A stretch of 61,146 bases of DNA, filler included, from Hausera hauseri (taxonomy: Eukaryota): assembly GCA_046269625.1 (NCBI GenBank). It is 9 parts of 9 records of this genome, joined end to end, with 100 filler letters (N's around TTAATTAATTAA, not from the genome) between each part and the next. Parts side by side here need not be neighbours in the genome. Positions count along the whole stretch, not along the records: positions 11,008 to 16,697 come from JBJURY010206078.1; 8 more parts are not named here. One strand, written 5' to 3'. Positions 1 to 60,620 of the stretch are shown here, in pieces. The stretch's first letter is position 1. Each line of letters opens with the position of its first letter. The notes under the pieces are model-generated. The model saw nothing but the letters and a program-made list of their open reading frames with translations, did no database searches and was not told where the DNA came from. The position numbers were made by a program, and so were the translations under genes.

Positions 1-182
1 GATCGTCATAATGAAATGGGAAGTCTATTGGATGAAAATAGAAACTTATTAGATAGAATTCAAAAATTGGAAATTGAGAATCGGAACTTTCAAACTACAC
101 TTGCTGATCGTCATAATGAAATGGGAAGTCTATTGGATGAAAATAGAAACTTATTAGATAGAATTCAAAAATTGGAAATTGA
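1..182 (+). repeat. 105-bp (35-aa) coding tandem repeat at the window start
   Basis: Bases 1-77 recur exactly at 106-182 (DRHNEMGSLLDENRNLLDRIQKLEI). Confidence 0.95.
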
Positions 183-3100
183 TGTTCGAAGGTTAACCGA
201 CGAAATTCGTAATTTGAATGAGAAAAACCAAGACCTTGAGAAAAAGTTGATGCAGGCGAAAGATGACAATTTTAAACTTCGCGAAAGTCTAAACGAAGCC
301 GAGTCAAAGTTGCGTAGTAGAAAACAAGTCAAGCCATCTGCCAAACCGTCGAAATTTGTTCAGGACGATTTTTATGAACAATTGAAGTCTCAAAATGAAA
401 AATTCTTAAAATCACTAAGTATGTTTGAAAAAGAAATGGAGGAAGAATTGGATTCATTCATCGATGTTCAAACCCGAGGAACTGTCAGTGAAATTTGTCA
501 AGAGTGGAAAGACGAAAATGCATATTTATCGGACCAAGTGAAACAGTTACAAGAAAAAATGAGTACTGAAAATGAACTTGCAAAAGCAAAGAGCGTTGTG
601 GGATTATCCCAGAACGATTCACTTGAGGTGCAGTTATCTATTCTGAAAAATCAAATCGATGATATGAAACGAAAGTGTGCCGAAAATCATGTCGACAAAA
701 TTCAATACCAAGATTGTCTGAAACGCGATAAATTTAAAAAAGAAGAAATTGATCGTTTAGAAGCCATCATATTTTCATTAAAATCCGATTTGGATCAAAA
801 GGCATCAAATTTGAAGTCAGTTGAATCGCGGGTAAGTTCTGAACCGGATACACCAAATTCGCAAATGTCGAAAAAGTTGACAAGAGCACCAATCAAGTTC
901 ATTTCTGATATTGGACCAAAGAAATCCACAGAAAGTTTGGAAAAATTTGAATCGACGATAAAAGATCCGGACAAAGAGGACAATTCCAGTATTTCTGTGA
1001 ATCCAGTAATAGATAATTTGGAAAAGCGAGTCGGGTCACTGTCGACCCAGTTAAGTGAACGAAATGATTTGATTCAAACCCTACAAAAATTGCTGAGTGA
1101 AAAAGATCAAGTTATACGAAATGCTACGGACATAATTAAGCAGGATTCGGAACTGTTATTGAAAACGTCCCGGTCGCATAGTTTCGATAATTTTCCGTTA
1201 AGTCGTTTGACGTCAAATTTAACGAATGATTCAATCGATAGACATTCGGCTGAAATGCTAAATAGTAAGCCAATTAGAAGTAGACTATCGTCCGATACCA
1301 ATCTGGCGACGTTGAATCAAATTCCATCAAAGGTATTATTTGGAACTTCTGGAGTTGATTTTGACATCACAAAGAGTTTGGCTGATCGAGACGAAACGAT
1401 ACAAAGCTTGAAATTGGATTTGAATTTAAAGTCAGATCGGTTAATATCGCTCATGAAAGAAAATAAAGAATTGTCAAGTAAGTACGAAATTGAATCGCAG
1501 AAATCTAATCGAACTGAACAGAACCTCATTTTAAAAGAGCAGGTATTGGAACAGATTCTGAAAGAAAAGGAACAAATACGATTAGCATGTTCGAATGAAT
1601 TGCAGGAGAAATCGGATAAATTGAGCGAGAAAATCAAAACGATCTCGCTTCTGGATAGCGAATTACATCGTCTCTCATCACAAGTCGAATTTCTAAACAT
1701 AGAATTACGCGCAATCAAAGCCAAAGATTCCTTACTAGATCAGCAGTTCGATAAAGATTCGTTTGATGCATTGCAAAGGGAAAATGACGCTTTAAGACTA
1801 ATGATTGATTTGAAATTAGCCGAAAATGAAACGTTGAAAAATGAACTCGTGTCAATGCAGGTAAATTACAAGAAACTGTCAAATGATTTCGATGCTTACA
1901 AAATCGATGTCATCGTCACGCAAACGGACAAGACTATTCAAACCGACATACCTGATAGTAGTGCCAGGAAGGAAACTGAAATCATCGAAAGCTTGAATTT
2001 AGTGCTGGATATCGATGTCCAAGAACCAAAACGTGTCACAATCAAAACCCCGTCTGTTCAAGAACATAAAATTAAACTAAGTACTCGAAATCACGCGAGC
2101 CAAACAACGATGATTGAAAAATCCAACGCAGAAATGTTAACGTCCCAAATGAATATTACTCAGATGGGTAGTTTGAAAAAAATTGTGGACAATTTCACCC
2201 AAGTGCCGATTGAGTTTGATCGAGTCAATAAAATCGATCAGGGAATCCAAACCGACGATATGAAGAAAGTCAAGACGAGTCAAGTTAACATATTTACTGC
2301 CGTGGAAATGCGAGAGGAAGCAATTTCAAATGAAAATCGCAAACTACAAAATGAAATTAATCAATTGAAAAGCATTATCGAAATTCTGAAAGAAAATGAA
2401 AATAAATTAAAAGATACGAATATGGAGGAATTGTTAGAGAAAGATCGACAATTTATGGCACTGGAAAGCGACTGTCATTTGTTGATGAGTAAACTGCAGC
2501 AGTATACCGATTTAGAGAACCAATTAGACTCATTACTAAAACAAAAGGAAATCGAATTCAACGATTTACAAACGGAGCTAAGCAACTGGAAAGAAAAATC
2601 CAACGCATTCGAAAAGAAAGCCACTGATTTCGAATATCAAATTATGGCGTCGGACAAAACGCTGAACGAGAAAAATTCCCAGTGTGAACATTTAAAGCAA
2701 AATTTAGACAATATGAAAATGCAAATCCAACGATTAGAGGATCAGTTTGAAGTCTATAAAAACAAACAAGAGAAAGGCAGTTCTGTGGAAAACAAATTAA
2801 ATTCTGCTCTGAAGCAGAAAGAAACCGAATTGGATGACTTAAACACTGAATTGTGTGCGTGGAAAGATAAGTGCCGGAAGTACGAACACCAGATCGACGA
2901 ACTGAAATCCGAAGACAGAGCTACGCAACAATTGCTTCAAAACCGAAGCTCCCAGTGTGAACGGCTGAAGGAGAGCTTGGATCAGACGAAAGACCAAATA
3001 AAACAACTCGAATTTAATTGGGAAAGTTGTAAAAGTGAGTGGTTGGAGAAATTGGGCAGTTTACAAATGACGAACGAACAATTGGAAAATGAATATATGC

Positions 3101-6100
3101 AATTGTTGAAGAAATACGAGACGAGTGACGAACATAAAAACTGTCTTGAAGAGGAATTGGAAAATGTGAAAAGGAACTACATGAAACTGGATCGAGAATA
3201 TCGAAAGTTGACGAGTGAATATTTGGATATGGAGGCGGACATTGTTTTTCGTGACACCGAAGCGGGACGTTTGCAGTCGGATATAGAAAAATTGAAAACG
3301 TCCAATATGGAATTGACAACTCAAGTGGAATCGTTGACTATGGATTTAGTAAATGCCCACAGTAAAATCTGTGAGTTATCTCTCAAATGTTGTACGAGTA
3401 AAGTAGAATCGAAAGTCTATCATTGGAAACCGAGACATTCAGCATCATCATCAGGTAGACGATACTGTTCAAACCCGAATTTGAACAATATTCACAATAG
3501 TTGTTTGGATATTTTCGACATCTACCAAATAGACTATGATGACCTGAAGAAGCGATATGATGGAATTTGTAGTCAAGTTGGTAACCTGATTTCTCAGTTG
3601 AAAACGAAGGATAGGCAAATCTCTGAAATTCGAATTGAATATCAGGATAATATTCGGAAATTGTCAAACTTCGAACAATTGAAGTTCGATCATTCGGAGT
3701 TGGAGATCAAACATAAGCGGTTACAAAAGGATTACGATAACCTAACTCAACAGTTCCGTTGCCATGACTTGGAGTTGCAGCAGAAGATTAACTGTAAAGA
3801 TGAAGAAATTGAACAATTGAAGTTAGCCCAAGATGAGATGGAGAAAGATTGTCAAATATGCGGAGAACATTTGAAAGAATTACAACAACAAGTTGACATG
3901 TCGCATTCCGATGTCTGTAAATTACAGGAAAACTATTTGGGAAACATTGATAGTTATGCCGATTTGGAACGTGAATATAACCAACTAAAGTGTCTGTACA
4001 ACAATTCACTAATCGAACTGGAACAGTGTGCCGATTTGAATCAGGAGATCTGTGATAAAGATAAACAGATCAAGGAACTGATGATGTGCAATGAGAATCT
4101 GGAACGACAAGTCTCCGATTTCCACGAAAGAACGAGCTTTCAAAATCGAACGATCGATGAATTACGACAGAAGGTGATAAATGTGGAACGTTACTATGAT
4201 GGTGAAATCGTCCAGTGCCGAGAAAACATCGAACGACTGAAATCCAGTGAACTTGGTCGATCAGCTAACTGCTGTAGAGAATTGCGGGAGAAAGTCGACT
4301 TCATACGAAATTTAGAAATGAAAATCGACGATTTGAAATTGAAATATCGTGCACAGAGTAAAGAATTCGATGATCTGAGTAGTGAATATTCGAATTATTT
4401 GTTGAAATTTGATGGATTGAATCGAGAGTTACAAATCCAATGTAAGTTGAACGATGAGTTATCCAGTCAACTACGGGACAATAACTGTTTAATTGATGCT
4501 GCCAATCGAGATAAATGCCATCTGAAAATGGAACTTGAAAATAAAAATTCGAAAATTCGAGAACTGATGAAAACCGTCGAGCGATTGAATCATTCTCTTA
4601 AAGAGAAAGATGTCGAATTGAAGACGAATGAAAGTCAGCTGAAAATCAACGAAGACAAACTAACAAGTAACAATCGAGAATCGGCTAACTTATTGAAGAG
4701 AATTGAAGAATTAAACGTCGAATATGAACGAAGTCAGTCGGAACGAGCTTTGGCATTGGACAAATTAGACAAAGAAATGAATAATTACATAGACGAATTG
4801 AAACGGAAATCGGACGACCAGATGCGTTGTCACAAAGACCAGTGTACCGAGTTAACCAATGAAAATACCGAACTTAAGCGAGTTATTCAAGCCAACGACA
4901 AACTCATCTGCAGTTTACAAGCGAAAATATCCGAACTCTGTAAAGACATTGAAATGCTAAAACAAGCCGTTAATGAACGAACTAAACTGTCGGTCTGTCA
5001 AGACCAGGAGATTTCCGATTATCGAAAAGACAACACCAAACTGTGTCGTCTGTTGAACGACAAGGACCAAAATATTTCTGATCAGAATCAGCAATTACTG
5101 ACGTATTCGACGGAAAATAAGCGTCTGAACGACATTATCGATCAGAAAGATCGAGCTATTTTGAGTCATGAAAAAAATTATCGGAACATCGTTAGAGAAT
5201 TGCAGATATTAGGTGAGGAAAACAATAAATTAAAGAATAAAATTGAAGAGATCTTGTCGAAGTATCACGATCTATGTCAATTTATTGAAGAAGATAGTAG
5301 GCCTGGTTTTAGTCCTAATGAATCACGGGAACTGATTCTGGACGACAATGCAGGTCTGAAGCAAGATGACCAAAGTCATATACTTTCATCAATAACTCCA
5401 GTGTCTGATATTCAGGTGTTGGATAACACTCTTGTAATTGACGGCGATGAGAAAGACAGAAAAATACGACTAAGCGAACCCGTCTTTTCGACAACAAAAT
5501 CGGTAACATGGAAAACAACTCACGCCGATGAAGAAGGAAAAGATAGTGCTGGAATTACGAGTTTAGAAAAGGCAATTGATGACTACGAGAATATACTCGA
5601 GACATTTGAACTCCCTAACGAAGTTGTGAGAACGGACAAACTATTTTCCTTGCTAAGAAAAGAAACTCCTGATACTCATATAAGCGATTTCAAATTAAAT
5701 TATACTGAAAGTATTGAGGTCAGTATTTCAAGTAGCGAAACGTTCAATAAGGATGATGCTCCATCTAAAGGTTCTTCAAAGTCATCAGGTAATTCAATTG
5801 AATTAGAATTTCAAAAGCCCGAAAGTTCATCACCGTCAGTTTCTGACAAGGAAATGAATATTTCCAAATCCAAGAGCAAAACGAGCTCATCCAACATTCC
5901 ATTGGAAATTGAACTTGTAAGATCCAAAAGTGAATCGAGTGCTGAATATCATATGTCAAGTAACATTTCAATTTCCAACCCGCCGACGGAGAATAAATGG
6001 TCCGAAAACGTAACTCCCAACAAACTCGACAGAACTCTTAATGTCAAATTTAATCTAGACGACGTTGGATCATCAAAACTTAATTTGCCATTCGATCAAC

Positions 6101-9100
6101 CGGATGCCGAATTTGGGATCGATAAAAAGAAATCAATTGTTAAAAAGTCGAAATCATCAGAAGATGTGAAAATAGAAAGTAAATCAAAGACCGATTCCGA
6201 GGAGAAAGATGTCCGTCCTGTTGCACAAGAACGACGGTCACAGTCATTAGATAATAAAATATCCGTTAAAAGTTCAGAGAGAAAAGATGCTCCTTTCAGG
6301 ACAATTGACGCACGCAGTTCAATGGGTTATCAAATAATTGACACAACACCACCTATAGTAAAAGGAAAGAACTTTCCACACATACCATTAAGTAGGAAAT
6401 CTTTGGAGAGTAATCAAATATCGAGTGCTCAAAGAAAGGACGAATATGACATACGGTTAAGTAGAAAAAGTTCAATAAGTCATCAAATACCAAGTTCTAA
6501 ATCTTCGGATACCTTAAAAAGAAAGGATTTATCTGATATACCGTTGAGTAGAAAAGTTTCCGAAAATAATCAAATATTGAGTCCTAAGAAGTCCGATTCA
6601 TCAAAGAGAAATGATGCATCCAATATACCGTTAAATTCTAAAAGTTCAGATTATAATGAAATTCCAAGCCCCATGAAGTCTGATTCATCAAAAAGAAAGG
6701 ACCTATCTGATATACCATTAAGTGCGAAAGGTTCAGATTATCATGAAATACCAAGCCCTATGAAATCTGATTCATCAAAAAGAAAGGACTTATCTGATAT
6801 ACCGTTAAGTGCGAAAGGTTCGGATGAAAATCAAATACCTAGTCTTATAAAGTCTGATACATCGATATTAAAGGATATATTTGAAATGTTATCTAGTGGA
6901 AAGGTTTCAGATACAAATCAACTACTGAGTCTTCTAAAGTCTGAGATGTCTAAACGAAAAGATGCATCCGAAATACTGTTTAGTGGAAAAGATTCAGAGA
7001 ATTATCTGATACCCAGTTCGAAAATGTCTGATAAATCAAGAAAACAAAATTCATCAGATGTTCCGTTAAGCGCAAAGAGATCAATGAATTCCAAAAGACT
7101 AGATGACGCTCTTGATATTGTCGTTAGTGGAAAGGGTTCAAATGATGATCAAATACCTAGTTTGAGGCAACCGGATTCTCTGAAAAGAAAAGATGACTCA
7201 AAAAGTCCGTTGATTGAAAAGGATCCCGATAATGATCCAATTACCAGTTCATGGCGACTAGATTCTTCAGAAAGAAAAGATGCATCACAGATTTTGTCAA
7301 GTGGAAGAGGTTCAGATAATGTCAAAGCAACGAATATTAGAAAACCGCATACATTAAAGAGAAAAGATACACCCGATATTCCTTTAGTTGATAACGGTCC
7401 TGAAGATGATCCAAGAACGAGCTCGTGGCGATCTGTTTCTTCAAAAAGAAAAGATGCACCACAAATACGAATGAATGAAAAAGATTCAGATCATGTTGAA
7501 ATATCACATTTTAAGAAACCTCATGTATTGAAAAGGAAGAATACACCAGATGTTCCGTTAGATGAGGATATTTCAGATGATGATAAAATAACAAATGTTA
7601 AGAAACCTCATGCATTGAAGAGGAAGGATACGCCCGATATTCCGTTAAATGAGGATATTTCAGATGATGATAAAATAACAAATGTTAAGAAACCTCATGC
7701 ATTGAAGAGGAAGGATACGCCTGATATTCCGTTAATTGAGGACAGTTTAGAAAACGATCAAAGATCGAGTTATTTGCGACTGGAATCATCAAAAAAGATT
7801 CATGTAGCACCAATTTCTCTAAGTATAAAAGGGTCAGATAATCATCAAGGAAGTCGTCCGATTCAACTGGATTCTTCAAAAAGTAAAGGTGCATCAAAAA
7901 TTCTTTCAAGTGGAAAACGTTCAGACGATGAAGAAGTCGCGAGTTTAAAGAGACCACGTGCTTTGAAGAGACAAAATACACCGGATATTCCGTTAGATGA
8001 AAACGATACAGATGATCAAATAAAGAGTTCTGGAGTTCCTAGTGCCTTAAAAAGAAATGAAACTCTAGAAATACGTTCAAGTAGAAAAAGTTTACGGATT
8101 GACAGGAAAATCAGTAATAGTTCAACAACAATATATGAAAATCTCAGTACTAAGCCTAGCGTTACTGAATCAAAGTTACAATCACTTATAGTCGAGAAAT
8201 CTGAAAGTATTTCATCATCCAGCTATGAAAGTAATTCTGAAGAACGACTTTCACAATTATCTGTGCAAAAAATATCTAAATTGAGCTCATCCTCTCATCA
8301 CGAAAGTCACATTAAAGAAAAGGACATATCGAAATTATCGGAGCAAAAGAGATCTAAAAGCGTTTCATCACTTAGCTATGACGGCCCTAAAGATGACAAG
8401 CATGATGAGAGACGAAGATCACAATTTACAGAGAAAACAAGGTGCCAAAGGGTCTCATCGTCTAAGTACGAAGGTCTCTGTGCTAAACTAAATGAAAAAG
8501 AAAGGTCTCAGTTACTGGAGAAAAGAAGATCCAAAAGTGTTTCATTTTCTAGCCATGAAGGTCACAGTGACAAACCGTATGAGACTGGAAGACCTCAGGT
8601 TTTAGAACAAATAAAATCCAAAAGTGCTTCTGTGCCTAACAGTGAAGGTCATAAATCCGGACCGTATGAAGAGGGAAGAAGATCACAGCTATCAGAGAAA
8701 ACAAGATCCAGAAGTGTTTCATCATCTAGCCATGAAGGTCATGATTCCAAGTCATATAGCACGGAAAAATCAATGCCCAAAAAATCGAAAGGCGGCTATG
8801 AGAATGATATTCCCGTCGTGCCAATGAAGGATTCTCAGATACCAAGTGAAGAAAAACCGAGAGGTATGCCACTCTGTTTTAAAGATGATAACACAAGATC
8901 GCAAAGAGGACAAAGTACGCGTGCAGTAAACGCTCCTGCTGCTTTAGATAAAACGAATAGAACAATTCATTCAAACGGAAAACAATCGGTGAAAAAATCA
9001 AGTACATCCATGGAGAAAAAAGGTATTGATAGAAAAACTCTTGGAACGGTATTTTATTCTCCGTATTCTACCAACGATGAAAACGTCCGCAAAAACACGA

Positions 9101-10701
9101 ATATTAACGACTATTTGTCAAGCATCATTGACCTGCTGAAAACTGTCGCAGGAGTAAGTGTGGACGAAGATGAAGAAAGTCTTGAGTCGGTTTTAACTTA
9201 TTTATTGAAGAGGTATAAGGAGCTCGAACAGTTATATTTAACCTCACTAAAAATTCAGACTGCAGACTCAGGAACTGGAAGCAATTCCGAACTTATAGAA
9301 AAATTTGCGGAAACATATAAGATCTCCCAAGATGAACTGTTACAACAGTGTGGAATGTTGAATACAATTGCTTCTTCAAAATCTCTAAAAGATCAAACGG
9401 AAAAATTAATATCAAGCAACTTGGTCAATTTTTCCGAAATTATCAAAAAGCAACAATTTCAACTGTCTGTTCTTAACTTGGTGTCGGAGAATTTACAGAA
9501 AATCGATACTGAATTCGGCGAAGACATGTATCCAATAAAATCAGTATCTTTATTGTCTCCATACAAAAGTATTTGGAAAATGGAAAATATTTGTGAAATG
9601 GTTCAACCAGAACCCCAAACAATAACAAATGTTTCGCCGAAACCATCAACAAAATCAACATCGAAAAAATTTGCCCCAAAGTCTGATGGTAGTTTACTTT
9701 GTCAAAACGAGTCTGTCAACAGGAAACTTTCTACCTCAAACACAAGTTACATATTTGATCAGGATGAAAAATCGACTAAAGAACTGTCGCAAGTATCATC
9801 GAGAAATTCATTCTCCTTTCAACCACAAAAGTCTAGAGCTAGTACAGAAAAACAAGTCTCTCTTTCTGTCAAGACACCCAAGCATAGCTTGGTTAAAAAT
9901 GTCAGTCTTATGAGTAAGAAGACATCTGAAGAAAACGTCCAACCTACTAGTAAAATTGCGAAGCCCCAAAAGGCCATTGAGTCAGTAGAAGGAAGGAAAT
10001 CTTATCATTTTCAAGATAAGAAAATCGATTCGAAAATCGTTCATGAAAATTGTGGTCCTCTAAGCACAGTTATATCTTTAGACAACATTTCCGAAGATGC
10101 TTTGAGTCCACAAATTTCTCAACCGGAAAAGCAGCTATATCAATTAGATAGACCAAAAGACGATGTTCATGACTACAATCAAAAGTTAGCGGATATGCTT
10201 CAGTTGTATGCAGCTGAGCTTGATTATTTGAATGACAAAAATCACTTGAATACGGTGATTATCAATAGTATGCTTAATCAAACTCAACGTAAAGAAAACT
10301 CTAATTTAATGGACGATTTAAATGCAAAACTAATTGAAAAGGCAAAAAGCTTAAGGCAGTTACAATGCGATCTTCAGACGAAATCAAATATGTCGGACAT
10401 GGAAAATATCCTCATCGATAAAATTCTTGCTTCAAAATCCTGCGTGACCTATGTAAAACCGTTTAAGGAATGGATGAATGTTGTTGATATGCAGAAACAT
10501 CAAAATGTTGAGAATGATAGACGGTTCAGTGAAAAAGCAGCAAGACCAGGGTCCATTAACCTAACTCGCCACGTCATAGAAACAAATTCAGAAAGTGGTC
10601 GACAACAGAGACAATCAAAAATACCCTTGTTGCGAAGTTCCAATATTGATTCTCCTCATCAAAGTGTTAGTGATAGATTTTATTTGAATAATACGAATTA
10701 A
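1..10701 (+). CDS. Giant coiled-coil / low-complexity repeat protein (>3566 aa, 5'-truncated, single uninterrupted reading frame)
   Basis: Frame 1 is open from base 1 (GAT CGT CAT AAT GAA ATG) to TAA at 10699-10701. The first half has heptad-like E/K/L/Q-rich sequence, the middle has S/K/D-rich tandem repeats, and there is a short coiled coil near the C-terminus. No enzymatic motif recognised. Confidence 0.9.
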   Translation, partial: DRHNEMGSLLDENRNLLDRIQKLEIENRNFQTTLADRHNEMGSLLDENRNLLDRIQKLEIDVRRLTDEIRNLNEKNQDLEKKLMQAKDDNFKLRESLNEAESKLRSRKQVKPSAKPSKFVQDDFYEQLKSQNEKFLKSLSMFEKEMEEELDSFIDVQTRGTVSEICQEWKDENAYLSDQVKQLQEKMSTENELAKAKSVVGLSQNDSLEVQLSILKNQIDDMKRKCAENHVDKIQYQDCLKRDKFKKEEIDRLEAIIFSLKSDLDQKASNLKSVESRVSSEPDTPNSQMSKKLTRAPIKFISDIGPKKSTESLEKFESTIKDPDKEDNSSISVNPVIDNLEKRVGSLSTQLSERNDLIQTLQKLLSEKDQVIRNATDIIKQDSELLLKTSRSHSFDNFPLSRLTSNLTNDSIDRHSAEMLNSKPIRSRLSSDTNLATLNQIPSKVLFGTSGVDFDITKSLADRDETIQSLKLDLNLKSDRLISLMKENKELSSKYEIESQKSNRTEQNLILKEQVLEQILKEKEQIRLACSNELQEKSDKLSEKIKTISLLDSELHRLSSQVEFLNIELRAIKAKDSLLDQQFDKDSFDALQRENDALRLMIDLKLAENETLKNELVSMQVNYKKLSNDFDAYKIDVIVTQTDKTIQTDIPDSSARKETEIIESLNLVLDIDVQEPKRVTIKTPSVQEHKIKLSTRNHASQTTMIEKSNAEMLTSQMNITQMGSLKKIVDNFTQVPIEFDRVNKIDQGIQTDDMKKVKTSQVNIFTAVEMREEAISNENRKLQNEINQLKSIIEILKENENKLKDTNMEELLEKDRQFMALESDCHLLMSKLQQYTDLENQLDSLLKQKEIEFNDLQTELSNWKEKSNAFEKKATDFEYQIMASDKTLNEKNSQCEHLKQNLDNMKMQIQRLEDQFEVYKNKQEKGSSVENKLNSALKQKETELDDLNTELCAWKDKCRKYEHQIDELKSEDRATQQLLQNRSSQCERLKESLDQTKDQIKQLEFNWESCKSEWLEKLGSLQMTNEQLENEYMQLLKKYETSDEHKNCLEEELENVKRNYMKLDREYRKLTSEYLDMEADIVFRDTEAGRLQSDIEKLKTSNMELTTQVESLTMDLVNAHSKICELSLKCCTSKVESKVYHWKPRHSASSSGRRYCSNPNLNNIHNSCLDIFDIYQIDYDDLKKRYDGICSQVGNLISQLKTKDRQISEIRIEYQDNIRKLSNFEQLKFDHSELEIKHKRLQKDYDNLTQQFRCHDLELQQKINCKDEEIEQLKLAQDEMEKDCQICGEHLKELQQQVDMSHSDVCKLQENYLGNIDSYADLEREYNQLKCLYNNSLIELEQCADLNQEICDKDKQIKELMMCNENLERQVSDFHERTSFQNRTIDELRQKVINVERYYDGEIVQCRENIERLKSSELGRSANCCRELREKVDFIRNLEMKIDDLKLKYRAQSKEFDDLSSEYSNYLLKFDGLNRELQIQCKLNDELSSQLRDNNCLIDAANRDKCHLKMELENKNSKIRELMKTVERLNHSLKEKDVELKTNESQLKINEDKLTSNNRESANLLKRIEELNVEYERSQSERALALDKLDKEMNNYIDELKRKSDDQMRCHKDQCTELTNENTELKRVIQANDKLICSLQAKISELCKDIEMLKQAVNERTKLSVCQDQEISDYRKDNTKLCRLLNDKDQNISDQNQQLLTYSTENKRLNDIIDQKDRAILSHEKNYRNIVRELQILGEENNKLKNKIEEILSKYHDLCQFIEEDSRPGFSPNESRELILDDNAGLKQDDQSHILSSITPVSDIQVLDNTLVIDGDEKDRKIRLSEPVFSTTKSVTWKTTHADEEGKDSAGITSLEKAIDDYENILETFELPNEVVRTDKLFSLLRKETPDTHISDFKLNYTESIEVSISSSETFNKDDAPSKGSSKSSGNSIELEFQKPESSSPSVSDKEMNISKSKSKTSSSNIPLEIELVRSKSESSAEYHMSSNISISNPPTENKWSENVTPNKLDRTLNVKFNLDDVGSSKLNLPFDQPDAEFGIDKKKSIVKKSKSSEDVKIESKSKTDSEEKDVRPVAQERRSQSLDNKISVKSSERKDAPFRTIDARSSMGYQIIDTTPPIVKGKNFPHIPLSRKSLESNQISSAQRKDEYDIRLSRKSSISHQIPSSKSSDTLKRKDLSDIPLSRKVSENNQILSPKKSDSSKRNDASNIPLNSKSSDYNEIPSPMKSDSSKRKDLSDIPLSAKGSDYHEIPSPMKSDSSKRKDLSDIPLSAKGSDENQIPSLIKSDTSILKDIFEMLSSGKVSDTNQLLSLLKSEMSKRKDASEILFSGKDSENYLIPSSKMSDKSRKQNSSDVPLSAKRSMNSKRLDDALDIVVSGKGSNDDQIPSLRQPDSLKRKDDSKSPLIEKDPDNDPITSSWRLDSSERKDASQILSSGRGSDNVKATNIRKPHTLKRKDTPDIPLVDNGPEDDPRTSSWRSVSSKRKDAPQIRMNEKDSDHVEISHFKKPHVLKRKNTPDVPLDEDISDDDKITNVKKPHALKRKDTPDIPLNEDISDDDKITNVKKPHALKRKDTPDIPLIEDSLENDQRSSYLRLESSKKIHVAPISLSIKGSDNHQGSRPIQLDSSKSKGASKILSSGKRSDDEEVASLKRPRALKRQNTPDIPLDENDTDDQIKSSGVPSALKRNETLEIRSSRKSLRIDRKISNSSTTIYENLSTKPSVTESKLQSLIVEKSESISSSSYESNSEERLSQLSVQKISKLSSSSHHESHIKEKDISKLSEQKRSKSVSSLSYDGPKDDKHDERRRSQFTEKTRCQRVSSSKYEGLCAKLNEKERSQLLEKRRSKSVSFSSHEGHSDKPYETGRPQVLEQIKSKSASVPNSEGHKSGPYEEGRRSQLSEKTRSRSVSSSSHEGHDSKSYSTEKSMPKKSKGGYENDIPVVPMKDSQIPSEEKPRGMPLCFKDDNTRSQRGQSTRAVNAPAALDKTNRTIHSNGKQSVKKSSTSMEKKGIDRKTLGTVFYSPYSTNDENVRKNTNINDYLSSIIDLLKTVAGVSVDEDEESLESVLTYLLKRYKELEQLYLTSLKIQTADSGTGSNSELIEKFAETYKISQDELLQQCGMLNTIASSKSLKDQTEKLISSNLVNFSEIIKKQQFQLSVLNLVSENLQKIDTEFGEDMYPIKSVSLLSPYKSIWKMENICEMVQPEPQTITNVSPKPSTKSTSKKFAPKSDGSLLCQNESVNRKLSTSNTSYIFDQDEKSTKELSQVSSRNSFSFQPQKSRASTEKQVSLSVKTPKHSLVKNVSLMSKKTSEENVQPTSKIAKPQKAIESVEGRKSYHFQDKKIDSKIVHENCGPLSTVISLDNISEDALSPQISQPEKQLYQLDRPKDDVHDYNQKLADMLQLYAAELDYLNDKNHLNTVIINSMLNQTQRKENSNLMDDLNAKLIEKAKSLRQLQCDLQTKSNMSDMENILIDKILASKSCVTYVKPFKEWMNVVDMQKHQNVENDRRFSEKAARPGSINLTRHVIETNSESGRQQRQSKIPLLRSSNIDSPHQSVSDRFYLNNTN
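6361..8100 (+). repeat. 87-bp (29-aa) coding tandem repeat array, about 20 degenerate units
   Basis: Units such as IPSPMKSDSSKRKDLSDIPLSAKGSDYHE (6661 and 6748) and KKPHALKRKDTPDIPLNEDISDDDKITNV repeat with a 29-aa period. Confidence 0.9.
8200..8760 (+). repeat. Second coding repeat of about 29-30 aa (RSQLSEKTRSRSVSSSSHEGH-type), about 6 units
   Basis: Recurrent RSQ(L/F)xEKxRSKSVSxxS(H/Y)EG pattern in the translation. Confidence 0.75.
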
Positions 10702-11007: not shown

Positions 11008-11307
11008 GTAAATAATTTTCAACCAATTTCCTGATTCAATCAGTGATTATAAATAGATTTATAATTGCTAGAGTTCTGTATTTGGTACTAAATATTCGTT
11101 TTCCAGTCGAACTTATATCAGTAATAAAAACGATCAAATTAAAGCTTAATGGATGATAAAGGATCTTTGTGATTCTATAATTTGTCATTAATGCAGCATA
11201 TTTTTAATGATTTGGTTTGGTATTTTGCTTATTTTTTTATACAAAACAACCCAAAACTAAAATGACATTATTGCAACTATTCGTTCAATTAAAAATTAAA
11301 CAGTTTA

Positions 11308-12280
11308 TTAATATTTTGTCTATCCAGCCTTGCCTTAGTGACTGATTTGATCCTACGTGGCATGCAGCTGATCATATTCTGAACTGTGGCGGGTGAGATT
11401 TCATTCTACATGTTCTGTAGATGGACCCATAGTGCATCCTTATTACTAGGATTGGCTCGCTGCAATTTTTTAAACATTATTTCCTATAAGTGTTTTATGT
11501 GGTTGAGGCCTAGACTCTGGGCTAGCCAGTTAGTATACGGACACCATGATCCTTGAGATATGCACTCACAAATCTTGCATTATGACACGGCGAGTTGTCC
11601 TGTTGGAACAGAAACTCTTCCCCAGTGTCAAAAAGTAAATTGGCTGACGTCACCATGCAGTTCTTGATAATCCTGACATACTAGTGCTGATTCAACTGGC
11701 CAACCCCAGTCCAGAATATGCAACCCCAAACCATAATAAAACCTCCCCAATGCTTAATTGTAGGATTAAATCACTGTTGGATGAATTTCGCACCAGGCTT
11801 TCTTACACAGAACACCTGGAATGAACTCTCTTCACTCCATAGTACCCGTTTCAACTGTTCAACATCCCAGGCTTCATGTTGCCGCGCAAAGTCCAAGCGG
11901 GCTTTCTTATGTGCAACGGTGAAAAGTGGTTTCTTTACCGCCAAGCCTTCTCTGAGACCAGCTTTCAAGAATTTCTTGACTGCTTGCAGAGACTTTTACT
12001 GCCGACTGTTGGAGCTGCTTGTTGAGGTCGGATGATGTCAGTCGACGATTCTTCAAATTCATCCGTACTAAACTTCGATCCCGTCTGATTGCCGTTTTTT
12101 GGCCGCCCTTGCGTTGGTAGATCACGCACTAAGTTGGTTGCTGCATGCTTCTCTAATATTATTCACCGTCATTAAGTTGATTGTCCTCGCCTTGGTTACT
12201 CCTGATATGAATACCCTTTCTGTACCTTCGTCAACACCATGCATCTCTGTTCCATCGTCAACTTTCTATACGAAGCCATG
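11308..12280 (-). mobile_element. Tc1-like DNA transposon relic (decayed transposase)
   Basis: HTH region RRDRSLVRMNLKNRRLTSSDL; KKPLFTVAHKKARLDFARQH..W..VLWSEES; WGCIFW; FQQDNSPCH; C-terminal KAG.TKY*. Multiple stops and frameshifts. Confidence 0.9.
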
Positions 12281-14401
12281 TTTAAAAAATAATTTTAAAA
12301 TAATAAAAAATTATAATAAAGGAAAAATACTCTAGTATTTAAAATGCACTAGAATATTAAATACGCAACAAATCATGTTATTCGAACTTCAATTGTTACT
12401 ACATATTAAAATTTTGGGTAAGTTTTGACCAAAAATTCATAAAGGTCATCACATGGATTATAAAGCATCAATATACCATCCTTTCAATATAAATTTATCA
12501 ACAAAGTAAAAGTTGACATACCTTTTGATATCCGAATATTGATAATCTACCAGTCACCACAAGAAAATCGGATTAAATCAGATAAAACTGATAAAATAAC
12601 GTAAAATTTGTTTATAAACAATGTCAGTTGCTGCAGCAAGAATTGCAAAATGAAATTAAGTGGTATTCGCCAGATGGCAGCACACTAGTGTTTTTTAACA
12701 TTTAGTAATTTGTAAAAGTATTTGATTCATCAAACCGTTATTTAAGTTGAAGTGATCCGTCAGTTCAACATCTGATGATAAAATGTTTACATTAACCAGT
12801 GAATTTTGTCGCTATGTGCATGATTGTCGGAAATTTTAATGAAAAAATTTAATTCTGTTTTCTCTCTATCGTCTAGAACGTCTTTGACACAACAAAGTTT
12901 TCTTCCAAATTTGAACCCAAAGCAAAACACCTGATGAGCTGTGATGACATTTCGTATCAAATGTGTACCTTGAAAACATCACAGGTAATGTTAATCAATT
13001 AATATAGTAAAACAAATACAGATTTTTGACAGTTCATATTCGTGATGAAAATTTAGCTATAATTACAGATAGATTTTAACAGAAGTAAGAAGATAGCTTC
13101 CTTTTTCAAATCTGGTTTGAAAAGTCTTCTCTCGGAGTCGTTTGATTATCATTATTATTCTTCTGATTGTAGATTTTGTACTAATAATTTCATTTCATGT
13201 TCACCAGCAACTGCTAAATCTAGGAATCATATTGACATTTACTTCAGAGGTTGAAATCTCGTATAAATTTATCATTTCTCAATCTTAAAATCAATTCTTT
13301 CTCCAGTGATCAATACTATTCTTGATTTCGTCTTTGTTTTAGGACCGAATTCAGAATTCATATAATTTCATCGAATGGTATCAAATAAATCATGTCAACT
13401 GTATTTCTTGTATTGAAAAACTTCATTGATAAAATATAGCCAAATAATATTCTATTCAATCGGAATAACTTCAGCACTGTAAGGTGAATTCATTTTTATC
13501 CAGATCATTTATTAGTCAAATTATTTATTTCAATACAAAACTTCACATTATTACGAAAGGCGTCCGTCGATTACATATGCATATTACTTTGTTGTTCACT
13601 TTGAATTTGTGATTCTTCTCAGTTCTTCTCAGGTCTATTCATTTCAATAGTCGTAAAAATCTAAGTGGGAATATTCGGTTTCCAATGGTTGAGTGACTGT
13701 AAACTGTATCGAAGTTTCTTTCAAACCGTACAATTTAGAAATTTCCTTGGCACAATTGTGTTTAATGTACTAAAGAAATGTACAATTTAACGGTACTAAG
13801 ATATACTCGTAACCGTATTACGCCTAGGGTAAAATTGTAAAAATTTTCAAACACTGAATTAGTCAGCTGTTATAATGTTGAAGATTAATCCGTTAGTTGT
13901 TACTGACAATGAGCCGTATGCATATGTATGTATTTTTGCCTAGGATTAATTTTGGAATTTCCAAAATTGCAACTATCATATTTTCTTTCCATTTCTGAAA
14001 TTAGTATGCAGCTTCGATTGACATATTTTCTAAAATAAAGTATGTAGATTAGTAAGTGCGTTTTGGACTTTTCACATTATTATTCATTCTGTTCATTTGA
14101 TTTTCTCCAAATTATTCATTCCGTATTCTAGGTTTTCCAAAACTAAATTAATCATTTCTATGCTGTTTATTTTCTCCAGTGAACAAACGCAATTCTGTCA
14201 AATCTGTATCTGTAGTATAATTATATGTAATCGATTTATAATCAATTATTAAGCTATAAGTGGATAACAATATTCATACAAAGTGCAGGCTAGTGATTAC
14301 ACCCAGCAGAGGGGTTTAACAATATAAGACAAGGCATAATGTCGCAAGTCAAAATATTTCTTAATACCATTGTATTGTCAAACATTGTCTAAATTGAAAA
14401 T

Positions 14402-15560
14402 TTAGTCAATAGGGTTGTTCAGCAGCTCTGCAACCTTCTTGCCCTCCTCTTCGGCTACAAGGCGATCCTCAGCAGCTTGCTCAGCAGCAAGGGCTCGAAA
14501 ATCAACGTCCTAAAATAAAATTAAGATAATAAAATAAAACAAAACAAATTACCAGTCATCAAACTTGTATACTAAACATCTTCACAGCACCGACTTTTTT
14601 GCCTCTCGTCCATACGAGAATGCCAAAATAACCGTTCCTGGTTATAAGTAAATATAAACGGAACGGAGCCCGGAACTTTAACTCATTTGTATAGGCCCCT
14701 GATGGACCTATATTCACCGTCCTGCGAATGCAATATTGCCAGAAATTGGTCAGGACTAACATCATAGTACCCGACGTCATCTATTATCTAAGGGAAACAA
14801 AAAATTTAAAAGCAAAAGAAAAACTTACAAGGACATTATTGATCGTCTCAACTGTTCGGGGTATCATGATTCAAATGAATTACAAATGGGTACTTCCCAT
14901 GACTTTTAGCATAGGCCGATTTACCTATGCCTGCACACCCGAACAGAATCGCTGTATTCCGGTTCGATGCAATGTCAAACGGAATTTAAAATCCGGATGG
15001 CTTTTAATCTTCACGAATTTACCGTTAAGGAAATTACGTAACTGAATTTTGTATTACTAATTCCTGCCGGTCCGCTTCGCATATCACATTCATGGCAGCA
15101 ACAGGCGTATCGGCGTCGGTAAAGTCTCTGTACATTGACGTTTTCGATGTTTTGTCCCTGTAGGGATCGATTGGACACGTCTCCCACTGGAAAATCTTGG
15201 CTGACGGAAAATTTTTTGAAATGATATCTACAAGTAAATGAAGCAAAAAGGAAAAATAAATGACCTGTAAATTTCATACACGTCCTTCTTGAAGGCAGGG
15301 CATAATACAATCGTGTAAAATTACGTCGCACAACATGCAATCGTGTCGGCGTATTAAAATGCAGGAGGATGTGAAAATGTTTAAATCCTCTGAGAGAAAC
15401 TTCCTCCTGCAATCTGCAATAACTTGTTCGGTTTATAATGACCTCGATATTCTCAAAAGCCTACGAATATTAATTTATCAATCATAAAAATGTCATACTA
15501 ATCGCGTGGACTCCGAATATGAACGTCCATGACACCCATATAATGTCTAAATGACTCCTG
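14402..15560 (-). pseudogene. rep: CRESS-DNA-virus-like Rep (HUH endonuclease + SF3 helicase), spliced, decayed
   Basis: Motif II KHFHILL (HFH at 15371-15379). Motif III-like IYRYHFKK across intron 15228-15264. Walker A GCAGIGKS at 14917-14940. Walker B NVL|IIDD joined across intron 14788-14828. RSIRGLYK.VKVP.SVPFIFTYN gives motif C. Last exon DVDFRALAAEQ...NNPID*. Four GT-AG introns; several frameshifts and stops. Confidence 0.85.
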
Positions 15561-16697
15561 CTTGCCAGGAAGGGTCATTTTACGAATATTAGTCGTTAAT
15601 TTGGTTTGAAGAGCATCCAAATGCTCAGAATCTGAAGATGCGTCAAACCATACCGCAGCTGGCGCAGGCATTGCTGACTGCACGATTTCTGAATTTCCTG
15701 GATTTATACCGGGGACCGCCGGTAATTCGCGCAATTACTTTTTTTTGCAGTGGTGTGTCGCAAGCCGATTTCAGTATTTCCGCAAAGGATTTACGATTTG
15801 GGAAGGAAGATTTGGAAAATTCTTGTGGAGTGTCCGTTAACGATGACTGAAGTTGAGCTGCTCTCAGAAGATCCTTGGCTACTTGAGGACGAGATGGTCA
15901 GGATGTCAGCATCTGTACTGTCGTGTATCCTAATAATCGGTTTCGAGTAAGTGGTGACATGGTTGTCTACTTTAGAAATATGTGCGACCAGTGTCCTGGG
16001 TGGGGCATTAATTGTTGCAATATTAAATTCTATTTTGTGGCTCTTTACTTTAGGTGTGGTTACCGTTTATTTATCTATATATTTGAGGTCATGTTTTGTA
16101 GGTTTTGGTTTTAGGTTGGGTATAGGTCCTACGGCTTGAGTGTCGACCTGAAGACATTCTTTATTAGGTTTCAAACGTAGAAGGTTGCTTGAATCATTAT
16201 CGGGAAATTTTTCCACTTTAAACGACTTTAGGAGTTCAGGCAGAGACGCTTCGGAAGAGGTGGTTGCATCAGATAGTAATTTTAGGAAGTTGAGGATGCT
16301 CCTACTATCTAGAAAATAGATAATTTTGTACTTATCTGTGGCACTGTTATACTTCCCTAAGAACCTATTCAGGAAGTCAGAAGCCCTCAGCTTCAGCCTG
16401 TTATTTTTAAAGTACACCGATTTATTTACATAGGTGCTATTGCCTTTGTTAAAGAAGTATCGAAGGGCTTTAGCAGTGGGTATATAAGTAGAGAGTGCAC
16501 AGTGGGTTGATACAAGTGCATCATCCAATGGCCAAGTAAAGCGCGAGTTAGGTGTGGTCATCGGTATAGATATCTGCTGTGGCGTAGCTGCGGTCATGTT
16601 GTCAATTGGAGTAGGTTTTAGTTGAGGTAAGGCTGCTTTACTTGGTTGCGATTTTTCGGAGAGTGGGTTGGTCGGATTTAGGCTGTTTCTATAGGTG
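15561..16697 (-). pseudogene. Unknown coding region upstream of and co-oriented with Rep (possible N-terminal extension)
   Basis: ORF 16067-16597 is open to the contig edge at 16697. It is followed by S/T/P-rich coding-like sequence and by ORF 15498-15734, which leads into the first Rep exon. Confidence 0.5.
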
Positions 16698-26078: not shown

Positions 26079-29000
26079 ATGGCGCAGAAACACGAGGAGC
26101 AGAATTGCCACCGTGTAATGCAACATTATTTTGGGTACCAGCACAATAGGACTAAATACTATGTGTGTCTTGCACGTGAGGTAGTGTTCCGGACCGGTTA
26201 CGAGGAATTTTACAACCAACATAAACAGCATGTGAATTCATTCACAAAATCGAAGGAAGAAATATTCAACAGTAATATGTCAATGACAAGAAGTGTCCCA
26301 AAAGCAAATCAGATGTGCGGTTCCTATGCTTATTGCACATCCAAAACACATAATTCGTAACAGTGTCATAAAACGATGCAGCGGTATTATGGATACAAAT
26401 CCAAAAGTATCCAATATTATATGTGTTCCAGATATGAGACTGTATGCGGTGCAGATTACATACAGGTCTATTATGATCAAAAACAACATTTGAGTCACTT
26501 CGCATCAAAATCAAAGCAGGCCATTTATAATGAGCAACATAATACTAATGCATCTGCTTCGCAGTATGATGCTTCGCAGTATTCTGCCTCGCATTATGCA
26601 GCTGGATCTGGTGCAGCAGCTGCAAAACATATTAGAGAATTGAAACGCGCAACTGCATTATGCGCAGCAGCATCAGGCACGGCCACATCAGATGCACCGG
26701 CCCCATCAAAGGCCAAAGACAGCGGTCAGTTGATGCGGCAGCATTAAAGAGAAAATGCCGCAGATATGTTATTGATGCAACTGGTCAAACAACCCTCCAA
26801 GACTTCCTCTTATACACAAAGGACAAGACAGAGGGGATTCTCCAGGACAACATAACGGAGCTCAAAGCCCTTAAGGTGAATTTGAGACTGGAGGCTGCAT
26901 GCATCAATGTTAATGGCGAAGAATCCAATAGGGCCTTCAAGACCAAAAATAGGCCCATTTTTGAAGCCACCAATAGAGCAGAATGGCTGCATGAAGAGCA
27001 TGTGAAGCTGATCCGTGAAGCCGGGGAGAGCTAGGATAAGGAGAGCGGATGGACTCTTGTAACCATCAAGAGATTGCTTGTGTATGTTCACAAGTACTCT
27101 CCAATGCGGGGACGTTCCTATATTCAGCTTCCGGAATGGATCGCTAATAAAAAATCATGCATCAATGTTCTTAATGATGACAACAAGCTTTTTCCATTTC
27201 AGTGACGATGAGGCCGTGAACAAGCTTGCAGAGCACAAAATGCACTGCAACAACAATTATTGTATCAGGCCAGAATTTCCCAAAGAGAACTACACTGAAT
27301 TCAAGGAGTTCGAGAAGAAGATCAAGGTCCCAATAGTTATCTATAGCGACTTTGAAGCTATCCTGCGTTCAGTTCAGAGTTGCAATCCCAATCCCCAACA
27401 TAGCAGCACAACGGCATACCAATATCATGAACTCTCATCGTATTGCATGTATGCCAATGGACTGGGCAGTAAACCATTTCTATTCAGGGGTTCAGGCACA
27501 GCAGCTTATTTCAATAAACGACTTGAAGATATGGCTCATAGGCTTGGCGATATGCAGCAGCAGCATAAAGATACAATGAGCATGTCGAAGAAGCAAGGAG
27601 AAAAATGGTCCAAGGCAACAGCATGTTACTTGTGCGACAAATCATTCACCAAGGAAAGTTGGAAAGTCAAAGATCACTGCCATTTTACAGGCAAATATCG
27701 TGGCGCAGCATGCAACAACTGCAATCATCGCTGCAAAACATGCGCATATGTGTCTGTAGTGTTTCACAACCTCAGTGGCTATGATTCCCATTTCATAATC
27801 CGAGAATTAGGCAACATTGATGGTAATATAGATGTGATCTCCAACAGTGAAGAGAAATATATCACATTTAAGAAGCATGTTGGTAAAATCCGACTTCGTT
27901 TCATAGACAGCTTTCGTTTCATGTCGTCATCATTGAATAGTTTAGTGAAGAACCTCTCTGCATAAGAACTCAAGGAGACGAAGCGATTTTTCCCCATTAA
28001 CTTTGACCTTGTCAAGAGGATAGGCGTGTTTTCTTATGACTATATAACTTCATGGGAAACACTGGATGAGACCTCATTGCCGGCAAAGAAGGACTTTTAC
28101 AATATACTCTGATTGTCATATTAGTGATGCTGACTACCATTATTCTCAGAACGTCTGACATGCATTCCAATGCCGAAAATGAGGGAAATAGTGATATTTA
28201 CCTCAAGACGGACGTGTTGCTGCTGACAGACGTCTTTGAAAGTTTCAGGGATGTTACAATGAAGAGTCATGCATTGGATTCGGCTTATTTCTTTACAGCT
28301 CCAGGTATGAGTTGGTCAGCAATGCTGCGCTATACAGGTATTAAGTTGCAGATCATTAAGGATTATGATATGATCCTTATGATCGAGAGAGACATTAGAG
28401 GTGGAATATGCCAAGCCATTCATCGGTATAGCGAGGCCAACAACAAGTATATAGCTAAATACTACTCAACAAAGGAATCCTCATATATATAAATATATAT
28501 ATATATCATACTTGGTGCCAACAATTTGTATGGATAGGCAGTGAGCACCCCATCGCCATATGATAACTTCAAATGGGTCGAGAATCCTGAAAACATCCCT
28601 ATACAAAAACTAAATTCCCCTGGAGATACGGGATACACACTGGAGGTAGATATGGAACATCTAGCTTAGATACACGCAAGGCATCAACAGCTGCCTTTCC
28701 TCCTTGAGAGAAGGCCTCCGCTCCATGGAAAGCAGAGAAAGCTGCTCTGTCATCTGGGTAATAGAAAAGGTATGTAATCTAATACATCAATCTCCAGCAG
28801 GCTGTTAGACGTGGACTTTGTATTACTAAGATCCATAGATCCCTGTAGTTCAACCAATCCATGTGGCTGTAGTCATACATAGACCTCGGTATAAAGCTAA
28901 GGGCTAATGCCTAGAACGACATTGAGAAATATCAATTCAAAATATATAATAACAGCGTTTTTCGGCAAGACCATGGAGAATATCCGCAATTTGATCAACA

Positions 29001-56800: not shown

Positions 56801-57823
56801 TCCGTACTGAATCTTACACGAAGAAAACCGAGAAGTGTACATAACTACCGTATTCAGAATTTCCTCAGTTGGTCGAGCAGAAATGAGTTGGTCAGGCGAA
56901 ACATAAAAGCAAAGGTTTACATAAGTATTAGCGATCATAGTTTGGACATTAATTCGTAGCTTTTTCACAGAATTCATTTTCGATTTCTTTTGGACACTCT
57001 ACACCTTCATTCTATATATAACATATTTTGAAGCGCCATTATAGTAAAAAGAAATGCCTAACGGATAGAGAGAGATTAACATAGTCACATTACAACTATC
57101 TCTCAGACATACAACATTTACTGTAAATTGGCAATCAAACAAAACTATACCCCATACTCTCTGCGCAATGCCGTTAAATCAGTCCGTGTACTGTCAACTA
57201 CTGACCGAAGAGCATTTGTATCCATCACTGTTTCATCCTGAACAACAAAATTAAAACGACTGAACAAACAGAATAAACTGAAAACCAAATACCAAGCGTC
57301 TCTCAAATCCCGTCATTCGTTGCTTCATTTCGCATTCCATATTCTTTAAGTACGACACCAAAATCCTTGAATGGAACACGCTTTCTTCTTCCAAATGCTG
57401 CTGTATTTCATCAGCCATCAAATCCATTCGGTTACATCCGACTGAAGCATACACGCAGCTGACTGGCGCTTTCAAACACATTCTCATATGCTCGGACAAT
57501 TGACGTAGCTTGCATTGGAATGTGCATCTTGGGTAAGGGCATTGAACTATAAGGTAGGTCACGTCGATATTTCGTGCTGGGTCCTTGGCAATGTCACGGA
57601 AATAATTCAAATATGTTTCAGCACATTCTTCTTTTCCACCGGGACATATTTTTTCTTCGTTTGACAAATACTCATCGACACATTTTGTACAGAATTTACA
57701 ACCACATGGTGCATAGCAGGAATCAATGAGCACTTTCGTACAGATTGTACACTTTAAATAGTCCGGTACTCCATCCGCGAAATGCAATTCATAGTTTCGA
57801 AGTAAACTGAACGACTCTTCCAT
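56801..57823 (-). CDS. TRAF-like RING + TRAF zinc finger + coiled-coil protein (partial, spliced)
   Basis: Exon 57823-57293: CTIC...PCGCKFCTKC...CP (RING), CPYPRC...HMRMC, CVYASVGC...H...H. A 55-nt GT-AG intron (57238-57292) is followed in frame by the coiled-coil exon DETVMDTNALRSVVD. No MATH domain is seen within the contig. Confidence 0.8.
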
Positions 57824-59479: not shown

Positions 59480-60620
59480 CAGCTCTTATTTGAGTTTCAT
59501 TGTTTGAATTGTCGACAGCGATAACTTACCCTTAAGTGTATCACGAGAAACTCTACAACAAGAAAAACTAATGAAGGTCATTCAAAAGAAATTAGTTAGA
59601 AAGGCTCTAGACATGATAAAAAAGATGAACAGAGACACGTTTGAATTGTTTTGGAAGGAATTTCGATCAGGCATAAAAATGGGAATGATTGAAGACAACA
59701 CGAACAGAAATCGACTGACGAAATTGATGCATACAAAGACCAACAAACAAACGAACAACATCACGAGTCTTAGTGAATATGTCTCTAGAATGCGACCTCA
59801 ACAAGAAGAAATCTTTTACGTTTGCTCCGAAAGTCTAGAACATATAGCAACGTCTCCATTTGTTGAGAAATTTTCAAAACGCGGATATGAAGTACTATAT
59901 TTTACCGATAGTTTAGATGAACATGCTTTGTTTTTAGTGGAAAAGTTTGAGGGAATAAAACTACTCAACCTAGCTCGCGGTGGGATATTATTAGATAAAA
60001 GTGAAGGTGCCAAAACGAAGTTAAACCAAAAGAGAGATGAATTGATACCATTAATTGAGTTTATGAAAGAATTGGATGTTACTAAAGACAATATAGAAAA
60101 CGTTGTTTTGACTGATCGATTGTTCTCGTCTCCATTTGCTGTCGTTCCTCAAGAACAAGGTTGGACCGGAAATATGGAAAGATTAGCTCGTTCACATACA
60201 ACTAAAAGGGATGAAGAAAAAGTTATTAAACAACATTTACAATTGAAAAAAAACTTAGAAATAAATCCGAAGCATCCGGTTGTCATGAAATTAGACCAAC
60301 TTATAACTAATGATGGAAATGCAAAAAATGATCTAAGCATTGTCAGTTTAGCCACGACTTTGTACGAGACTTTCAGATTGCTGTCAGGCTATACAGTTCA
60401 AGACTCGGATAAGTATTCTCATAATTTGGAAAGTGTTTTAGCAAATGATATAAATGATTATCCAATAGAAATGGAGGATACTGATGATACTCTAAGAACG
60501 GATAATGATAAAAATGCTTGGAATAAATATGACGAGGACCGAGAGGAGACATTCTTGAATGATAACGGCTCTCTTCAGAGCCACAATTGCTTATTTCGAT
60601 GGGGTTCCGAATTCCCCTAA
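59480..60620 (+). pseudogene. HSP90B1: Endoplasmin/GRP94 (HSP90 family)-like middle and C-terminal fragment
   Basis: [61 protein letters not shown]...GYEVLY; GWTGNMERL; LEINPKHP. There is an in-frame TGA just upstream, no N-terminal ATPase domain and no KDEL/HDEL end. Confidence 0.8.

Follow-up and report, generated by a model that had tools for sequence, protein, structure and literature searches.

The stretch of DNA analyzed here (the window; 61,146 nt from the Hausera hauseri assembly) consists of nine unplaced contigs with 100-nt N linkers between them. On the minus strand of one of these contigs (11008–16697, approximately 5.7 kb), we found a Rep locus in which the motifs KHFHILL, YHFKK, GCAGIGKS, IIDD, and VPFIFTYN follow one another in that order. 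A profile built from 23 intronless CRESS-type Reps matched the HUH region, the oligomerisation region, Walker A, Walker B, and motif C, also in order, and did so in three collinear blocks: 15460–15281 (profile positions 21–72, E 3.7e-4), 15153–14875 (E 2.6e-7), and 14787–14593 (profile positions 217–279, E 1.3e-7). Two of these blocks begin at the first base 3′ of intron 1 and of intron 3, and elsewhere in the six-frame translation of the window the same profile gave E 2.5 or worse. HUH motif II, KHFHILL (15382–15362), aligned to the profile, and the fused SF3 helicase was recognized by its Walker A, Walker B, and motif C, with an Arg finger that is a candidate by position only. The results confirmed that the locus is a divergent HUH + SF3 Rep gene of the CRESS type. 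An earlier, sequence-only reading of this DNA had listed the HUH and SF3 motifs in the right order and assigned them to the CRESS-DNA virus Rep architecture; the proposed profile comparison bore out the order of the motifs, and the profile, the sequence relatives, and the fold matches together bore out the architecture.

The gene is composed of five exons. Four short GT-AG stretches, likely introns, lie between them, all at the coordinates and of the lengths given in the sequence-only reading. The boundaries were examined by splice-aware alignment of Rep profiles to the DNA, in which frameshifts were allowed and any of 215 GT..AG candidates could be used; two profiles (a broad one and one of a five-sequence sub-clade) were run with four settings each, giving eight settings. 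Exon 1 (15499–15671) opens with an ATG at 15671 or 15578, shows codon periodicity (p=0.018), and has a phase break near its 3′ end. It likely holds motif I, at a candidate position only, as forced profile alignments disagree on the frame and give two different candidates for the motif. The gene had earlier been given the span 14402–15560, of which the stop end stands, whereas the start lies further upstream. Intron 1 (15461–15498, 38 nt, GT..TAG) was reached through its acceptor in 12 of 16 forced alignments and with both ends exact in six of them, which by alignment amounts to weak homology support. Exon 2 (15265–15460) carries HUH motif II; when it was searched alone, the best Atlas matches were Viral_Rep, Rep_OBD, and Gemini_AL1 at 0.85, a value to be read as a lead only.

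Intron 2 (15228–15264, 37 nt, GT..TAG) lies just 5′ of the candidate catalytic Tyr and was placed exactly in five of the eight settings (all four with the sub-clade profile, and one of four with the broad profile, which used the donor in 4/4). Disallowing it cost only 3.2 bits. The His-to-Tyr spacing is 38.7 codons when intron 2 is removed and 51 when it is kept, as compared with 37–46 codons in 15 of 17 relatives and 49 and 56 in the other two; judged by this alignment, intron 2 appears to be a good fit to the intronless relatives. Exon 3 (14829–15227) contains the candidate motif III YHFKK (15226–15212), the oligomerisation helices, and Walker A (GCAGIGKS, 14940–14917), as well as frameshifts near 15045, 14975, 14860, and possibly 15165. 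Intron 3 (14788–14828, 41 nt, GTAAGT..TAG) is an insertion relative to five intronless Reps and was recovered exactly in 8/8 free settings; it directly precedes Walker B, which the sequence-only reading had described as split by an intron. Exon 4 (14553–14787) includes Walker B (IIDD), motif C (VPFIFTYN, 14664–14641), the candidate Arg finger (14592–14590), and an in-frame stop at 14685–14683. Intron 4 (14510–14552, 43 nt, or 63 nt from a donor at 14572; GT..TAG, with a phase break nearby) lies outside the span aligned by the relatives, and its basis is composition. Exon 5 (14402–14509) runs for 35 codons to the stop with a GC content of 0.53 and marked codon periodicity (p=2e-5), and shows no homology to the relatives. 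Codon periodicity is thereby present both beyond intron 1 and beyond intron 4.

Taken as a set, the introns (GC 0.21, 0.27, 0.24, and 0.12 for introns 1–4) stand apart from the five exons (0.39–0.53). The gene span holds 33 GT..YAG candidates of 30–60 nt, and when they are ranked by composition, the top 11 all stop at these same four acceptors. Shuffled versions of the span had 0.5–0.7 such acceptors, and four were reached in 3 of 1000 shuffles of either type, with a T threshold of 0.40 that was chosen after intron 1 had missed 0.45; at 0.45, three acceptors were observed, matched by 3 and 11 of 1000 shuffles. Since AT-rich contigs elsewhere in the window contain up to 1.95 such sites per kb, nearly the 2.31 per kb seen at the Rep gene, composition alone provides a local argument only. 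The opposite strand of the gene span has no such sites, and of the five tracts with the lowest GC content in the gene, four begin with GT and end with YAG, 37–43 nt apart. The fifth tract (15065–15025) was considered as a further intron and rejected, as it aligns as coding sequence. The splice-aware score was 59 bits with introns and 37 bits without them, as against 7–12 bits for 12 shuffles and 10 bits for the opposite strand. Two of the introns interrupt the nuclease, one the helicase, and one the tail; together they amount to approximately 3.6 per kb of coding sequence, a gene-like density. In their 5′ regions, intron 1 and the longer version of intron 4 (15472–15501 and 14546–14575) are 73% alike over 30 nt, a likeness that is not significant (30 of 500 shuffles), and a similar phase break is found in both.

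The Rep copy is dead and cannot make a full Rep. It has 5–7 frame breaks and one or two stops, so that the frameshifts mentioned in the sequence-only reading are indeed present, whereas the extent of the damage had been understated. Three frameshifts, those near 15045, 14975, and 14860, were needed in every setting, and the reading frame is not kept across splice junctions 1 and 4. To reach YHFKK, another frameshift pair, near 15320 and 15165, has to be assumed; without it, the frame is open and lacks a motif III Tyr. The motif III candidate, which has the right His-to-Tyr spacing, was picked in two of the eight settings, and three of the four settings with the sub-clade profile favoured the frame lacking the Tyr. 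The stop at 14685–14683 may be joined by one at 14574–14572, depending on the donor of intron 4. The residues of the HUH motif, Walker A, Walker B, and motif C are nevertheless intact.

The region 14557–15159, translated in one frame with stops as X, found four proteins at E≤1e-3 among 1.84 billion representatives, with identities of 26–38%; two of them carry Viral_Rep, and one falls in a cluster with the Periparus ater CRESS-DNA-virus sp. Rep. In a profile search, 8000 candidates were scored, of which 21 proteins reached E≤1e-10. Among 20 full-length members, 12 match Viral_Rep and three match Gemini_AL1, the best solved relative being 7lar (PCV2 replicase). The nearest relatives are Reps on contigs of 1.1–5.8 kb, one of which is named as a CRESS-DNA virus sp. 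A word-seeded protein search, limited to 110–352 aa, yielded no close relative, nor did IMG/VR, JGI metagenomes, prokaryote genomes, phages, or plasmids; the JGI metagenomes contained one distant locus (L015). Searches of Rep fragments against Pfam (including Gemini_AL1 and Gemini_AL1_M), PHROGs, NCBIfam, and PDB sequences returned no real match. Among sequencing runs, no RNA run was listed for the locus; there were three contig-level matches, with word shares of 0.62, 0.10, and 0.06, which do not count as evidence, as the best of them may be the source sample. Apart from five that are split at contig ends, the IMG/VR relatives examined are uninterrupted (14/14). Such searches, however, favour unspliced genes.

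In the Rep phylogeny that had been proposed on the basis of the sequence, 36 rows were included (22 proteins, 13 of the 14 IMG/VR loci, and the window sequence with X at the breaks); P0031, L004, and L015 were left out, and no labelled family references were among the rows. The Rep locus formed a long branch of 2.55, was at most 30% identical to any row, and fell into no well-supported group, its grouping with unclassified CRESS Reps being weakly supported (57/97). As far as sequence comparison can place it, the Rep appears to be a long-branch orphan whose nearest relatives are unclassified CRESS Reps. The helicase region was modelled (pLDDT 72), with helices H4-37 and the P-loop strand, and the model had CRESS Reps and PCV2 replicase as its top matches in a fold search; the ranking is biased because the model rests on an alignment of the nearer clade. 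Geminivirus and genomovirus Reps ranked 17, 38, and 41 in this search with the nearer-clade model, and no named geminivirus or genomovirus was among the four matches at E≤1e-3. The GRS motif is a feature of Geminiviridae and Genomoviridae Reps, and no GRS-like motif was seen by eye. The gemini/genomovirus affinity suggested earlier was not supported.

Upstream of the Rep gene and in the same direction lies a second ORF (15791–16697, minus strand; 301 codons), which is cut by the contig end. Its frame has a single internal stop (16067–16069), as compared with 21 and 35 in the other frames, none of 2000 shuffles was as open, and its codon periodicity is clear (p=9e-4). Protein, family, and IMG/VR searches gave no homolog and no family match for it, and its fold model (pLDDT 35) was unusable. 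The ORF could encode a capsid or another partner of Rep, or could be unrelated to it. It has a strong C and A skew unlike that of the adjoining Rep, and is far less decayed. There are no frameshifts in 903 nt of the upstream ORF and 5–7 in 1111 nt of Rep (P about 0.008 for six), suggesting that the two may not share a history; the open ORF also speaks against sequencing error at a uniform rate as the source of the frameshifts.

Between the two genes, a TATAAA box (15703–15708, minus strand), 32 nt 5′ of the first ATG, is a candidate Pol II promoter with a putative function. By eye, a hairpin with a 6-bp stem (15719–15735, minus strand) was seen directly 5′ of a GC-rich box and the TATA box, and is possibly a promoter or Rep-binding element. 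No capsid gene was identified on the Rep contig, which ends inside the upstream ORF, and no nonanucleotide in a stem-loop was found on it, the one exact NANTATTAC having a 3-bp stem. An origin stem-loop could lie beyond the contig end or could have decayed. An Rfam search gave no matches, no structured RNA was found around the Rep locus, and a bacterial promoter scan, irrelevant to the locus, was at chance level.

Downstream of the Rep gene, the composition changes abruptly, with a GC change point at 14412 (range 14252–14434), next to the Rep stop. The Rep-bearing element has a GC content of 0.40, whereas the flank (12320–14401), which is AT-rich and devoid of coding signal, has about 0.30; this step at the stop codon marks the Rep DNA as foreign to the flank. 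Beyond the GC drop, approximately 2 kb downstream on Rep's own contig, is a decayed Tc1/mariner transposase remnant (11300–12270, minus strand; HTH_Tnp_Tc3_2, E 3.1e-5, below the Pfam cut-off), which is evidence for a chromosomal context of the contig. The GC drop at approximately 14412 together with the Tc1-like remnant fits integration, provided that the contig assembly is correct. Rep was not found to be enclosed by terminal repeats, either direct or inverted, the 5′ end being cut by the contig. A weak AT-rich inverted repeat was seen at 11038–11066 and 14219–14250 (2 of 200 shuffles, in one of six tests); its arms would bracket the Tc1-like remnant and end just short of Rep. A composite Rep + Tc1 element was rejected, as no inverted repeat spans both and the one weak repeat would enclose the Tc1 side only.

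The best sequence and fold matches are the Reps of unclassified CRESS-DNA viruses, namely QTE03536.1 (Periparus ater CRESS-DNA-virus sp.) and the unnamed P0007, P0008, P0013, and P0014. They have a YxxKK-type motif III (4/5 in the sub-clade), as does the candidate YHFKK of the present Rep, with which they share the helicase layout and the context of motif C, but are only 21–25% identical over the helicase region and have contiguous ORFs. The sequence-only reading had held that closeness to PEVE would remove the novelty; the PEVE type 2 Rep (Q910M2) is a structural relative (rank 10, E 8.2e-7) with only 15% identity, and PEVE is placed near PIVE and parvovirus-like elements in the text of PMC3198968.

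Host-spliced Rep transcripts are a feature of mastrevirus, genomovirus, and crucivirus Reps, and likely of the present Rep too; mastrevirus and genomovirus Reps have a single intron. According to the text of PMC7468197, spliced Reps occur in 36 of 461 cruciviruses, with the helicase motifs mostly in the second exon, whereas the present introns cut nuclease, helicase, and tail. Spliced CRESS Reps are described there and in PMC6186406 with one intron or two exons. Endogenous Reps are reported in at least 35 eukaryotes (PMC3198968), and such elements likewise consist of degraded Rep in eukaryotic DNA near transposon remnants (PMC3198968, PMC7493932); the main texts of these two papers do not contain the word ‘intron’, whereas the present copy has up to four. 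In the literature searched, with most subscription journals and all supplements outside its scope, we found no description of a multi-intron CRESS Rep. Intron-rich mirusviruses, as presented in bioRxiv 10.64898/2026.08.29.747986, offer a precedent among large dsDNA viruses. Replitrons and Helitrons, as described in PMC10288648, are likewise chromosomal HUH elements of eukaryotes. The locus is not a Helitron, as had been noted from the sequence, for its helicase is SF3 with a candidate Y1 nuclease, while Helitrons in that account combine Y2 with SF1B. A Replitron was also rejected; Replitrons are described there as having no helicase, one is present here, and no terminal direct repeats were found.

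The explanation that we consider best, although the case for it is evenly balanced, is that the dead copy remains from a small rolling-circle virus, or a virus-like episome, with a Rep transcript that was spliced by the host at up to four introns. By analogy with the CRESS biology outlined in PMC7468197 and PMC10288648, the Tyr of the spliced Rep would nick the origin, and the protein would form oligomers and unwind DNA. The introns would have been present while the gene worked, because clean GT..AG insertions would not be expected to pile up in a dead gene and because the residues of HUH, Walker A/B, and motif C survive; the retained catalytic motifs further suggest that Rep served a replicon until the gene died. 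The copy may have integrated during nuclear replication and then decayed, and the upstream ORF may be the partner gene of Rep. The virus or episome origin is favoured by the collinear profile match, the score of 59 versus 37 bits, the CRESS relatives on contigs of 1.1–5.8 kb, the top fold matches, the GC difference between element and flank, the TATA box between two ORFs that run in one direction, and the occurrence of spliced Reps in CRESS viruses and of endogenous Reps in eukaryotes; related CRESS viruses of parasites are also GC-richer than their hosts according to PMC7493932. It is opposed by the failure to identify a capsid or an origin stem-loop, the 14/14 uninterrupted IMG/VR relatives, the single intron or two exons described for spliced CRESS Reps, the assumed frameshift pair behind motif III, the frameshift contrast with the upstream ORF, and the single copy seen.

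An alternative is a chromosome-resident rolling-circle transposon with a Y1 HUH nuclease and SF3 helicase, derived from a CRESS replicon, which gained its introns over a long stay in the genome and is represented by one decayed copy. We regard this as unlikely, yet it would accommodate the gene-like intron density (Replitron-1 has two introns in the account of PMC10288648), the lack of a capsid or origin hairpin on the contig, the kept catalytic motifs, and the long branch, for which collections of viral, metagenome, and protein sequences offered no close free-living relative, and a geminivirus-like Rep transposon in Tuber is mentioned in PMC3198968. On the other hand, no terminal repeats surround Rep as far as the contig extends, and no second Rep copy was found in the other 55 kb of the window, which is a weak test. 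Domestication of a captured viral Rep as a host gene, with a gain of introns and a later decay to a pseudogene in this lineage or copy, seems improbable: the TATA box, the five exons, and the non-homologous last exon would suit it, but the HUH, Walker A/B, and motif C residues are intact, the GC step marks the DNA as foreign to the flank, and the locus has a transposon remnant on one side and an orphan ORF on the other. Finally, the locus could be an endogenous Rep of the ordinary kind in which only one or two introns are genuine, the rest being due to decay or chance, or the contig could be misassembled. Introns 1 and 4 do adjoin phase breaks, and homology speaks for them weakly or not at all, intron 2 adds few bits to the score, and AT-rich contigs give similar candidate densities. 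We nevertheless consider this very improbable, given the four GT..YAG low-GC tracts (the fifth aligning as coding), the codon periodicity of exons 1 and 5, and the empty opposite strand.

What is new is a deep-branching Rep that has more introns than we found described and has largely kept its catalytic motifs, in one dead copy. It might, as a tentative and rather doubtful suggestion, be the first trace of an undescribed group of HUH + SF3 replicons, rich in introns and resident in animals or in parasites of animals, which would be either CRESS viruses whose Rep has five exons or rolling-circle transposons that kept SF3; an animal is a plausible host of the locus. The discovery of CRESS viruses and the assignment of their hosts rest on Rep being found as an open reading frame, and since Rep is here split into exons of 35–133 codons, such a lineage would be under-detected by ORF-based virus discovery. 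Its intron style would point to its host, and the structure suggests a virus or virus-like replicon that probably depended on host splicing far more than its known relatives do. If it proved to be multi-copy and capsid-less, it would represent a type of HUH transposon outside the four groups in the text of PMC10288648. The claim is limited to what one dead copy can bear.

The remaining contigs of the window contain eukaryotic Hsp90 and RING/TRAF genes, as well as transposon-like ORFs. The contig at 16798–24066 has LINE-like and hAT-like ORFs and a higher GC content that may recall fish repeats, in which case the assembly may mix two organisms. A fragment at 27063–27965 (plus strand) matches DNA_pol_B_2 and Endonuclease_7 and is presumably a Polinton/Maverick-type remnant. 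The C-terminal two thirds of a divergent Hsp90 (59508–60620, plus strand; E 2.9e-95) are preceded by transposon-like DNA with no evident N-terminal part upstream, and may belong to a broken copy. By eye, positions 1–10673 (plus strand) appear to form one uninterrupted frame of >3500 codons, open at the contig start, which is coiled-coil-like at first and then has 87- and 90-nt tandem repeats. There is a candidate T-rich intron of 55 nt (57238–57292, minus strand) in a RING/TRAF gene; no other plausible host intron was seen in the window.
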